The notes beneath the pieces are model-generated. The model was not told the origin of the DNA, made no database searches, and was given only the letters and a program-made list of their open reading frames with translations. The translations under genes and the position numbers were made by a program. A DNA stretch of 55,929 bases, the filler included, from Sluysia triapertura (lineage: Eukaryota), in assembly GCA_046118255.1 (NCBI GenBank). It is 3 parts of 3 records of this genome, joined end to end, with 100 filler letters (N's around TTAATTAATTAA, not from the genome) between each part and the next. Parts side by side here need not be neighbours in the genome. Positions count along the whole stretch, not along the records: positions 1 to 14,882 come from JBJNIA010245763.1; 2 more parts are not named here. One strand, 5' to 3'. Numbering within the stretch: the first letter of the stretch is position 1; every line of letters starts with the position of its first letter. Shown in pieces: positions 11,130 to 13,304 of this stretch.

Positions 11130-12310
11130 TCCGATTACGAATATTTGTAGTGGTCAACCTATTGCCTTAATAAATTTTATTATAAATTTATTTTAAATAT
11201 TTTACACACTTTCAAAAATTCACCAAAAATATTCTTTTTACATAAGTTTTTGCCAACATAACACTCACTCCCAAAATTTACAACTCACATTTTCAAATTC
11301 ACAACTAATACAAAAATAATTAAAAGCATACTCGTTTCAACACCACACAACAACCTTGTAAAATTCGTCACAACGTTTTTATATCTTAATTCTTTTCAGA
11401 TCCACCAAAATCAATTTCCATTTTTTAAAAACATTTCAAATATACAACTTTATAATATACAAACCACAATGACATTCATTACCATTAATTTACATTAAGA
11501 GATTCATCAAAAATATTTTACTCGACATTTCATAACAATCAAACTACAACCACATTCGAAATTAACTACTAGACATTTCCAAATCAATTAAAACATTCCA
11601 AATTCTTAATTTTTTAATCATTTTATTCCCAATATCACAGAAAGACAATATCACCTAAAAATAGCAAGAAAATAAACCATATTTCAACACAGCACAGTCA
11701 TCCTTTTGAAAATATTAAAAGCTAGACTATAACTTATCTTATTTTCATCCTCGAAACCATTCTCTTTCAACATACTTTTAACCCACGATCTACTAACATC
11801 TAAATATTATTCCATTCATAACATTTAACTTTTATACACCATCAAAGATATTTAGTTTTTTAATAGATTTAAATATGTTTAGAATATTTAAAATAATTAA
11901 AAGGAAGATTGTGTTAAGTTCAGAATAAGGAATTTATGCATTTTTTCTTAATGCATTCTTAATGTCATAACTTTTAATTTTAATATGTCGAGAATAAAGA
12001 GAGAAATTAAGAAAGTTCGTGTAAATTCGTAAGAATTACCGAGTTTATGCATTAATAATATTAATAATAACATTATTGTTATTAATGTTATTATTATTAT
12101 TACTATTATTATTATTTTCATTATTTTCATTATTTTCAAACACAAAAATTAATTTGGTAGCTGCCATCATCAACAGTGACATTTTTAATTCGCATACATA
12201 TTTTGGTGTCACTGTTGATGATGGTTTATTTGGAGTGGCAGTTAAATGGCAATTATAATCTTAATTTTTCTAAATTCTAGCTATCTTGGATTGGACACCC
12301 AATCACTGCG
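11130..12310 (+). repeat. Dispersed module X copy 1 (C/A-rich arm + twin palindromes)
   Basis: Alignable with 35400-36470 (e.g. AAAGACAATA.CAC.TAAAAATAGCAAGA). Perfect 18-bp inverted repeat 12164-12181/12207-12224 and GATTGG-ACAC-CCAATC at 12289-12304. Confidence 0.7.
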
Positions 12311-12478
12311 AGCGACTTATTGTTGTAATGGAAAATTACTATACAACACAAATTTTATTATTACCAAAAAATTAAATAATAAAAGTAACGCAAAAATTAA
12401 TTTCATAACTGGAAAAAATTTATAAAGTCTGAATTTTATTTTATTGATGTTCTTAAATTCAGTAATATTACTTATAGA

Positions 12479-13304
12479 ATGGAACTCATCAATTTTGCTG
12501 TTTTAATACTAAGACTTCTTTGGGGCTTATTTATTGTATTTTACATGAATTCATGGATTTGTTTTAGTAAAATTCCTAAATGCGAATGTTTACAACAAAA
12601 TTATGAAAAGTTGTTAACTGTAAATCATAGAATTGATTTACTCATAGTGTGTATGAGTAGCGCTATGATAAAACCCACCGTTACTTGTTTATATGTCGTC
12701 ATGCCTTTGGCTTATAATGACATAATAATCTATAAAAGAGTTTTAACTAAAGATGATTTTGATTATTAGTATGAAGTTAACGACTATGATCATAATTTTT
12801 ATGATTACTATGAAGTTAACCAAAACGATGATTATTTCGACGACGATTATGAAGCTAACGATAAAGAATATGGTGCTATCAATGAAGATCTTCATGATAT
12901 CTTAAAATTTAAAGGAAACGTCAATAAATGTCCAAGAAAATGTATAAATCAATTTAGCAAGTTCGATTCAACCCAGTCTAACATGACTGCCTTTTGCCCA
13001 TTCGGTGCGGACAACAATGGAGTATGTATAAAAAGTGTAATCGACTGCTGCTATGCTCATGCAGTGTATGAATTGAAGGCTATCAAGAGAAATGATTCAA
13101 ATTATAACTATCATTCGTCTAGAATAACAGAACCAGTCAAGAGTTTTAGCTCAACTACGATTTCAACTACCAGCGACTTTATCATGAACAATCAAAAAGT
13201 AAATAATTCTTTTATTTACAGTGATAATATTATAATTTATATTTGTTATTCAGGTAAGGGAACGTGGAATTGCATTAGGAGCACACACAGAAGCCAGTAC
13301 TTAA
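12479..13304 (+). pseudogene. Putative secreted/membrane-anchored Cys-rich protein with D/Y-rich repeats, one in-frame TAG
   Basis: ORFs 12479-12769 and 12983-13198 share one frame broken only by TAG at 12767-12769. Hydrophobic N-terminus, DYYEVN-type repeats and Cys clusters. A plausible 55-nt GT-AG intron (13199-13253) leads to a last exon ending TAA 13302-13304. Confidence 0.5.

Follow-up and report, generated by a model that had tools for sequence, protein, structure and literature searches.

What is a repeated, palindrome-bearing stretch of DNA doing in front of several genes that look unrelated to each other? This question is raised by a 55,929-nt stretch of the genome of Sluysia triapertura (assembly GCA_046118255.1), which we will call the window. 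A sequence-only reading of the window had noticed four copies of a cassette, each followed by a different open reading frame (ORF), and had proposed a mobile or virus-derived expression cassette with a bidirectional promoter and exchangeable cargo genes. Our analysis is confined to the window, and the rest of the host genome is outside its scope. We tentatively favor the view that the cassette is the internal control region (promoter) of a family of non-autonomous DNA elements with long inverted repeats and variable cargo. This view builds on features that are seen directly: a repeat family, palindromes that covary, an association with ORFs, and one inverted pair of terminal modules. We infer the mobility of these elements, because our searches turned up neither a transposase nor a polymerase, and no target-site duplication.

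A family of four cassettes

The cassette has a C-rich arm, a purine-rich motif, an (ATT)n tract, and two palindromes, H1 and H2. The parts of the four copies are as follows.

11140..11190 (+): copy 1, conserved DNA block at the left end, not an ORF (37 of 47 columns identical to 35399-35447)
11200..11860 (+): copy 1, C-rich and G-poor arm (skew -0.68)
11868..12053 (+): copy 1, tandem pair of the purine-rich ATATGT..AAG..TGT..TTTATG motif
12051..12138 (+): copy 1, (ATT)n tract
12164..12224: copy 1, H1, perfect 18-bp arms ending in TGACA and starting with TGTCA, 25-nt spacer (fold z -5.7)
12289..12304: copy 1, H2 without its left arm; the right half, a GATTGG-N4/5-CCAATC dyad, remains (not recovered with an H2 profile made from copies 2–4)
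29090..29400 (+): copy 2, C-rich arm, left side cut by a gap (skew -0.49; homology marginal)
29405..29578 (+): copy 2, purine-rich motif and (ATT)n tract
29588..29600 (+): CGCCGCCATTTTG, in copy 2 only (read from the sequence)
29664..29723: copy 2, H1, whose spacer pairs too, giving one long stem (15 of 18 pairs; fold z -6.2)
29766..29833: copy 2, H2, perfect 14-bp arms with CCAATCAG / CTGATTGG (fold z -6.9)
35399..35960 (+): copy 3, left-end block and C-rich arm
35968..36270 (+): copy 3, two purine-rich motifs and a short ATT tract
36308..36368: copy 3, H1, partly decayed (13 of 18 pairs; profile E = 5.8e-4; fold z 0.0)
36404..36467: copy 3, H2, perfect 17-bp arms (fold z -6.0)
50640..51300 (-): copy 4, inverted; arm, motif (50904-50829), ATT tract, and H1 remnant with the TGACA side only
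50566..50628: copy 4, H2, imperfect (15 of 19 pairs; fold z -2.6)

The four copies are homologous, and they lie at the places and in the orientations that had been reported: a profile made from any three copies recovers the one that was left out. For the core, from the motif to H2, the E values from these leave-one-out profiles were 1.4e-15 for copy 1, 2.2e-7 for copy 2 (in two pieces), 3.6e-16 for copy 3, and 7.1e-8 for copy 4. The (ATT)n tract adds to these scores, and the best other matches were ATT tracts or the second copy of a motif. Running the core profiles on the window gave no fifth copy of the cassette. The cores of the copies are 69–75% identical across the aligned columns, with many gaps; some blocks are conserved while the spacers between them are divergent. 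The purine-rich motif occurs six times, in all four copies and doubled in copies 1 and 3, and four of the six were recovered at E < 1e-3 by leave-one-out profiles (E = 6e-6 for the motif in copy 4).

The order of the parts is also as described, but only copies 2 and 3 hold both palindromes. The TGTCA arm of H1 is gone from copy 4, and the left CCAAT arm of H2 is gone from copy 1. The arms are C-rich in every copy (GC skew of -0.68, -0.49, -0.51, and -0.25 for copies 1–4), but clear homology between arms is limited to copies 1 and 3, which are 73% identical over 286 columns (11548-11828 versus 35546-35825). The homology of the arm of copy 4 is weak (z = 4.1) and that of copy 2 is marginal (z = 2.9 and 2.5). 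What had been taken for the end of a convergent ORF to the left of copies 1 and 3 is really the shared block of DNA at 11140-11190 and 35399-35447: the peptides in question, NICSG and NICGD, lie in open frames of just 24 and 15 codons.

We searched for perfect palindromes with arms of at least 14 bp, at least 5 G+C, and a loop of at most 60 nt. The window contains three of these (with arms of 14–18 bp), all inside cassettes, and there were none in 100 local shuffles. TGACA-N23-26-TGTCA occurs three times in the window, always in a cassette, as compared to a mean of 0.34 by chance (0/100 shuffles reached three), and CCAATCAG-N25-50-CTGATTGG occurs twice (0/100 shuffles).

The arms of H2 vary between copies yet pair within a copy. 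Arms from the same copy pair at 17, 17, and 15 of 19 positions, while arms from different copies pair at 10–15. At least two types of Watson-Crick pair are seen at 6 of the 19 columns of H2 and at 3 of the 18 columns of H1. The complementarity of H2 arms within each copy is suggestive: a hairpin or cruciform may have been selected, or one arm may have been recopied from the other. The proposal that the palindromes are sites for transcription factors is incomplete, as in every copy the flanking bases are complementary too, beyond what is needed for binding alone. Rfam's covariance models gave no family at the gathering level; there was one match, with E = 0.35 and 30 bits, as compared to a gathering threshold of 67.

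The CCAAT motifs would be NF-Y sites and the TGACA motifs TALE sites, and CGCCGCCATTTTG (29588..29600 in copy 2) matches the YY1 consensus. In copies 3 and 4, both arms of H2 are themselves dyads of the ATTRG-N4-CCAAT type, which means that as many as four CCAAT boxes are available in a complete H2. The distance from H2 to the first ATG is 175, 111, 94, and 138 nt in copies 1–4. CCAAT boxes are typically 60–100 nt before the transcription start site. Placing CCAAT boxes 94–175 nt ahead of the ATG supports a promoter-like geometry for the cassette.

Open reading frames next to the cassettes

These are the ORFs or possible ORFs in question.

12479..13534 (+): cargo 1, intron-free ORF of 351 codons, one in-frame stop (12767-12769)
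29944..30627 (+): cargo 2, intron-free ORF of 227 codons, one in-frame stop (30160-30162)
36561..37695 (+): cargo 3, intron-free ORF of ~375 codons, of which the last 232 are open
49830..50428 (-): stretch downstream of copy 4, which could at most be an ORF in advanced decay
34940..35425 (-): weak candidate for a divergent ORF, now decayed, to the left of copy 3; one frame is the best in most scoring windows

Each copy was said to be followed by an ORF. This holds for copies 1–3, whose ORFs are long, intron-free, and on the same strand, but not for copy 4: the region after it has 18–21 stops in every frame and a patchy coding signal, and the decayed ORF that was proposed there is not borne out. 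A stop-free frame of at least 150 codons, on the same strand and within 1.3 kb, follows three of the four copies, as compared to 6.7% of the background (P = 0.001). The background is 2182 positions with these ORFs included, and the P values range from 0.001 to 0.003. In total, the real window has seven stop-free frames of at least 150 codons and shuffled windows have none.

The cargo ORFs are unrelated to each other, as the sequence-only reading had suggested. Among 28 pairs, the best was cargo 2 versus cargo 3, with a score of 60, which was reached by 3 of 500 shuffles that preserve repeats. This similarity does not survive correction, so we rejected homology among the cargo ORFs.

Selection on the ORFs is suggested by how few stops they contain. 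Neutral decay at 0.17 substitutions per site per lineage predicts 6.3 stops in cargo 1 and 5.3 in cargo 2. If we use the divergence of the arms of copies 1 and 3 (0.16 per lineage) and count substitution alone, then ~6 and ~5 stops are predicted. Each has one stop and no frame change (P = 0.02 and 0.03 for at most one stop). Cargo 3 carries a stop near 36806, and its frame changes twice, at about 36.69 kb and 37.0 kb; in the part that is open, the probability of no more than one stop is 0.065. The shortage of stops in cargo 1 and cargo 2 rules out a single burst followed by neutral decay. Instead, these ORFs were under selection while the cassettes diverged, or they were taken up late from intact genes. 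Overall, the homology of the cassettes, their pairing arms, and their association with ORFs support a shared and probably selected control region before unrelated intron-free ORFs.

What do these ORFs encode? Cargo 1 had been viewed as a secreted-like protein. It has a hydrophobic N-terminus, as well as three acidic repeats of 39 nt (13 residues) at 12753-12869. However, the resemblance of its Cys-rich part to a CCCH zinc finger speaks against a simple secreted protein. This finger-like sequence (12995-13060) is C-x9-C-x6-C-x3-H, where the defining pattern is C-x8-C-x5-C-x3-H, and its match to Pfam's zf-CCCH_UNK (E = 1.1e-4, 22.5 bits) is below the cut-off of 31.1 bits. Its atlas neighbors are CCCH proteins and giant-virus clusters at 0.77–0.85 (below 0.9), which we consider to be leads only. 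Fold searches with a low-confidence model from the single sequence (pLDDT 56) gave no match at E ≤ 0.001. Cargo 2 is indeed a protein with 23-residue repeats, of which it has nine. For both cargo 1 and cargo 2, there was no homolog at E ≤ 0.01 among sequences with 0.55–1.75x the length of the query, with longer and shorter forms outside the search.

For cargo 3, the last 232 codons had one match among 1.84 billion representatives, to a repetitive TPR protein (E = 3.6e-4), which we rejected. Cargo 3 also has weak atlas matches to TAF2 TPR-like proteins (0.92, with 160–167 shared features and low recognition) and a match to Pfam's L544_helical that is below the cut-off (E = 0.017). Its single-sequence model is helical, with a pLDDT of 36, at which the confidence is unusable. 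Comparisons of frames from the window to NCBIfam (20 frames), PHROGs (22 frames), and PDB sequences (one frame) gave nothing credible.

The only hint that the promoter is bidirectional, as had been proposed, is the decayed divergent frame to the left of copy 3. Its best match is to the left of copy 2 (~28170-28270; score 61, z = 4.2, with a score of 53 for the next match). This is a weak indication of a second direction of transcription.

Terminal modules and a candidate unit of 6.5 kb

A second family of repeats, which we identified with leave-one-out profiles, has five hairpin modules.

1270..1850: module A, no cassette nearby
5495..6197: module B, 3' of a broken intron-free ORF, 7615-7098 (-)
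8387..9466: module C, left arm of an imperfect inverted repeat around copy 1, with inner tandem repeats
13790..14873: module D, right arm, in the opposite orientation to C; the outer end of D meets the gap at 14883
51852..52498: module E, upstream of copy 4 and oriented as C is to copy 1

The core stretches of this family are 1270-1850, 5495-6197, 8387-8870, 14367-14873, and 51852-52498, and module E was recovered at E = 1e-6 and 6.5e-3 when left out. Modules C and D are inverted relative to each other, are ~1.1 kb long, and bracket both copy 1 and cargo 1 (8387-14873). They are 93% identical over the outer 75 nt and 86% identical over a hairpin block of 144 columns; their middle parts match weakly (z = 6.3), and they have an inner block of tandem repeats in common. 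This inverted pair, along with module E at copy 4, suggests a unit of ~6.5 kb with long imperfect inverted ends. As to whether the cassette is mobile or derived from a virus, the claim gains support from the inverted repeats that enclose copy 1 together with cargo 1, but no mobility enzyme was found.

The modules also share finer features. An 8-bp hairpin covaries at 3 of its 8 columns, and a G.T pair on its inward strand is invariant in 4/4 intact copies; with two other small hairpins, there are three that covary. Directly before the 8-bp hairpin is GATTTTGA, which we take to be similar to an Sm site. Near the outer ends of A, B, and E, TATAAA or AATAAA lies at a constant 21 nt before CA. The modules have no match in Rfam.

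We considered several identities for the modules. A long terminal repeat was not supported: C and D are inverted rather than direct repeats, no primer-binding site was seen after A, B, or E, and the Pfam-scanned frames included no gag-pol. A spliced-leader gene was not supported either. Similarly, the repeats had no match to the hammerhead ribozyme of Penelope-like elements or Terminons in Rfam at E ≤ 1.

Two other observations concern the surroundings of these modules. A two-copy repeat (8151-8385 and 26498-26710) abuts module C and may have replaced its outer end. Upstream of module B, the intron-free, frameshifted ORF at 7098-7615 (-) is itself preceded by a C-rich stretch (7700-8000; skew of -0.49). 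There is no H1 or H2 here, and the locus may represent a fifth unit whose palindromes have been lost. The C-rich stretch does not align with the arms of the cassettes and aligns weakly with 39.45-40.15 kb (z = 5.9).

How would such a unit work? From one end to the other, it would have a terminal module, a spacer, the C-rich arm, the motif, the (ATT)n tract, the two palindromes, the ORF, and an inverted module, for a total of ~6.5 kb. We propose that the palindrome block is a promoter for the host's RNA polymerase II and serves whichever ORF comes next. Its CCAAT boxes, as many as four and arranged as two inverted dyads, lie ~100–170 nt ahead of the ATG. The complementarity of the arms would be maintained by selection for a hairpin or cruciform, or by recopying of an arm during a single-stranded phase. 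An enzyme that is encoded elsewhere would move the unit via its ends, and the cassette might also be a site for replication or recognition. Different lineages of the element would have taken up different ORFs, which would have been selected while the control regions drifted ~30% apart. The current genomic copies would have begun to decay only lately. In favor of this view, the cargo ORFs have no introns while the host genes in the window, such as NUBPL, do have them. If the cassette is a portable promoter for orphan ORFs, then it would give a concrete route to the origin, expression, and movement of intron-free orphan genes.

Several results count against this proposal. First, modules C and D are ~74% alike overall and are the only such pair, and they are too unlike for a freshly made pair, given that cargo 1 has just one lesion. 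The upstream terminal module is present for just 2 of 4 copies (P = 0.11), the ORFs of copies 2 and 3 are not followed by one, and modules A and B have no cassette. No target-site duplication is readable, as the outer part of C is missing and D runs into a gap. Second, the covariation is drawn from three sequences per palindrome, by counting pairs rather than by a formal covariation test, and it is weak for H1, as the arm of copy 3 pairs no better with its own partner than with those of other copies. Third, the dN/dS between the repeat units of cargo 2 is only 0.63, and the homolog searches for cargos 1, 2, and 3 revealed no parent gene. Finally, there was no transposase, integrase, Rep, helicase, or polymerase among the 144 frames from the window that we scanned with Pfam (140 of the 158 listed and four others), in scans that decayed fragments can escape.

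The other searches for genes of mobile elements gave similar results. PHROGs (22 frames) and NCBIfam (20 frames) identified no capsid, transposase, integrase, Rep, or polymerase. The polymerase B, integrase, ATPase, protease, and capsid of Maverick/Polinton elements were not found in the scans of the window, whose sensitivity for decayed fragments is limited. For Helitrons and Helentrons, no conserved CTRR-type end was seen by eye and the Pfam-scanned frames did not include RepHel. At the DNA level, there was no match in phages or in two exact-pattern scans of prokaryote genomes.

The setting of these elements looks like the genome of a fast-evolving, AT-rich animal. The window has a GC content of 25%. 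NUBPL (3471-5203, +) has introns, and its best matches are animal proteins that are ~60% identical, none of them close. Another intron-bearing host gene, at ~40.9-43.5 kb (-), is probably a RING-variant ligase (Pfam RINGv, E = 0.004). Both gaps in the window (14883-14982 and 28989-29088) contain the linker TTAATTAATTAA between runs of N, so the sizes of the gaps and the joins are uncertain.

The window also contains other repeats and fragments. A third family has two inverted copies (2575-2900 and 39481-39825) that are 71% identical and strongly strand-skewed; it holds a TGACAG-N14-CTGTCA hairpin. An isolated, perfect 12-bp hairpin with a 4-nt loop and a TGACA flank (22725-22752; fold z -5.0) belongs to no family that we found. 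Decayed fragments at 18780-19100 (+) and 54971-55500 (+) have a possible resemblance to hAT and Tc1/mariner transposases, neither of which Pfam detected.

Alternative explanations and known systems

One alternative, which we consider unlikely, is that the cassettes lie in segments that were integrated into the germline and that come from an invertebrate's multipartite DNA virus or episome, one not yet described, whose genes for replication and capsids would be on other segments. Each segment would then have shared, structured, inverted termini, a twin-hairpin origin and promoter, and its own orphan ORF. This would account for control regions that are old next to ORFs that are still open, orphan, and intron-free, and hairpin-primed or single-stranded replication could homogenize the arms within each copy. 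A 6.5 kb unit with inverted ends is also near the size reported for segments of Vesanto virus (3.3–5.8 kb), as far as the available account goes. Giant-virus clusters rank second to third for cargo 1 (score of 0.82), which is just a lead. But no viral hallmark gene was found in the scanned frames of the window, the two modules of the C/D pair are only ~74% alike, and just one unit has both ends. The fold searches with the low-confidence model likewise gave nothing at E ≤ 0.001. If this explanation is correct, then the cassette would mark each segment, and the full set could be retrieved from the genome by means of it.

It is somewhat less probable that these are ordinary host genes, which would be lineage-specific, fast-evolving, and intron-free, with a duplicated promoter. 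Their ORFs would have been replaced by recombination or would have diverged beyond recognition, and the breaks in them would be recent losses or errors in the assembly. The motifs are, we presume, those of host promoters, and the GC content by codon position of cargo 2 and cargo 3 resembles that of host genes. There is also the weak similarity of cargo 2 to cargo 3 (score of 60), but as the best of 28 pairs it fails correction. Promoters rarely outlast all similarity in the coding regions. Also, all three of the long ORFs are broken, and binding sites would not need perfect palindromes that are specific to each copy.

We have still less confidence that the cassettes are control regions repeated within a single large element, such as a large DNA virus or a giant retroelement, that was integrated and is now fragmented; the homologous regions of baculoviruses would be a parallel. 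The window does contain more broken, intron-free ORFs between the copies (M48, kinase, RING-like, and Cys-rich), and accessory domains are known from giant planarian retroelements, according to the portion of PMC6431247 that we drew on. However, intron-bearing host genes and debris of other transposons are interleaved with the cassettes, the gene density is low, and the Pfam-scanned frames included no core gene of a virus or retroelement. For reference, the long frames without obvious introns are at 14985-15494 (+), 17067-17495 (-), 19107-20942 (+), and 32184-33038 (-). They comprise a piece of an M48 peptidase and a piece of a kinase (both from Pfam), a 380-codon Cys-rich frame with no family, and a RING-like frame (E = 0.016), and there is no cassette ahead of any of them.

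A non-coding repeat with incidental ORFs (a miniature inverted-repeat transposable element, a Helitron-like element, or a hairpin-RNA locus) is very improbable: the palindromes are 60–68 nt, which is the size of small-RNA precursors, a microsatellite with stem-loops recalls non-autonomous rolling-circle elements, and copy 4 lacks a good ORF, but the association with ORFs on the same strand (P = 0.001–0.003), the short stems and 30–40 nt loops of H2, the absence of an Rfam family at the gathering level, and the absence of any conserved Helitron-type end by eye all argue otherwise.

Returning to the element with an internal promoter and variable cargo, its parts suggest that it behaves like a cargo-carrying inverted-repeat element, and we assign it to no named family. 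Several known systems have some of its features. Foldback-type elements, such as FB and Galileo in Drosophila and TU in sea urchins, have inverted repeats that are long and imperfect, with tandem sub-repeats on their inner side, around a middle that varies. The element proposed here would share these traits, and its middle is a conserved promoter-like module and a long ORF; no transposase that matches foldback elements was seen in the window. The common regions of nanoviruses and the homologous regions of baculoviruses are palindromic control regions that are repeated beside different genes. The cassettes differ from these in having no conserved nonanucleotide in the loop, in having larger units, and in that no Rep or core genes were found.

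Among transposons, Pack-MULEs are described as having terminal inverted repeats (TIRs) of 100–500 bp that hold promoters, along with target-site duplications of 9–11 bp (in the available text of PMC3310237). In Caenorhabditis briggsae, the msft-1/tlpr-1 MULE has TIRs of 870 bp and carries a toxin-antidote pair as cargo, as summarized in 10.1101/2022.07.12.499685. Like the element proposed here, Pack-MULEs and other MULEs with long TIRs are non-autonomous, with long inverted ends around variable genes. In Pack-MULEs, the promoters are in the TIRs and the cargo comes from identifiable genes, whereas here the palindromic module is internal and the cargo is orphan.

Maverick/Polinton elements are also TIR-bounded DNA elements with exchangeable cargo in invertebrates, to judge from the accessible parts of 10.1101/2022.07.12.499685 and PMC6431247, and the nematode Mavericks in the former carry intron-bearing cargo between the TIR and the integrase. 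They differ in having an integrase, polymerase, ATPase, protease, and capsid, none of which was found in this window. The virus-like elements of planarian and Hydra genomes encode Rep or NS1-like proteins, as stated in the excerpt of PMC3198968 that we used; these proteins are absent from the scanned frames of the window.

The Drosophila virus Vesanto has up to 12 segments of 3.3–5.8 kb with similar terminal inverted repeats (10.1101/2020.10.16.342956, in part). Vesanto and bidna-like viruses with multiple segments resemble our proposed element in being kilobase units with similar inverted termini and different ORFs, but no segment with polymerase B, a capsid, or a glycoprotein was found here, and the units in this genome are chromosomal and decayed. 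The available part of the Vesanto account does not describe a shared internal control region. Likewise, PMC6431247, in its available sections, treats Burro, Terminons, Helitrons, Polintons, and Teratorn, and in none of them, as presented there, are orphan ORFs preceded by a palindromic promoter that is shared and stands by itself. Word searches of the literature gave no description of the element, although subscription journals, Repbase, or supplements may still hold one.

Known elements that carry cargo have their promoters at the ends and contain host fragments that can be recognized. The one proposed here seems to have a long-conserved module that is internal and separate from the ends, and cargo that has no relatives. 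The core of the cassette and the terminal module would be precise probes for distinguishing a transposon family from a segmented virus.

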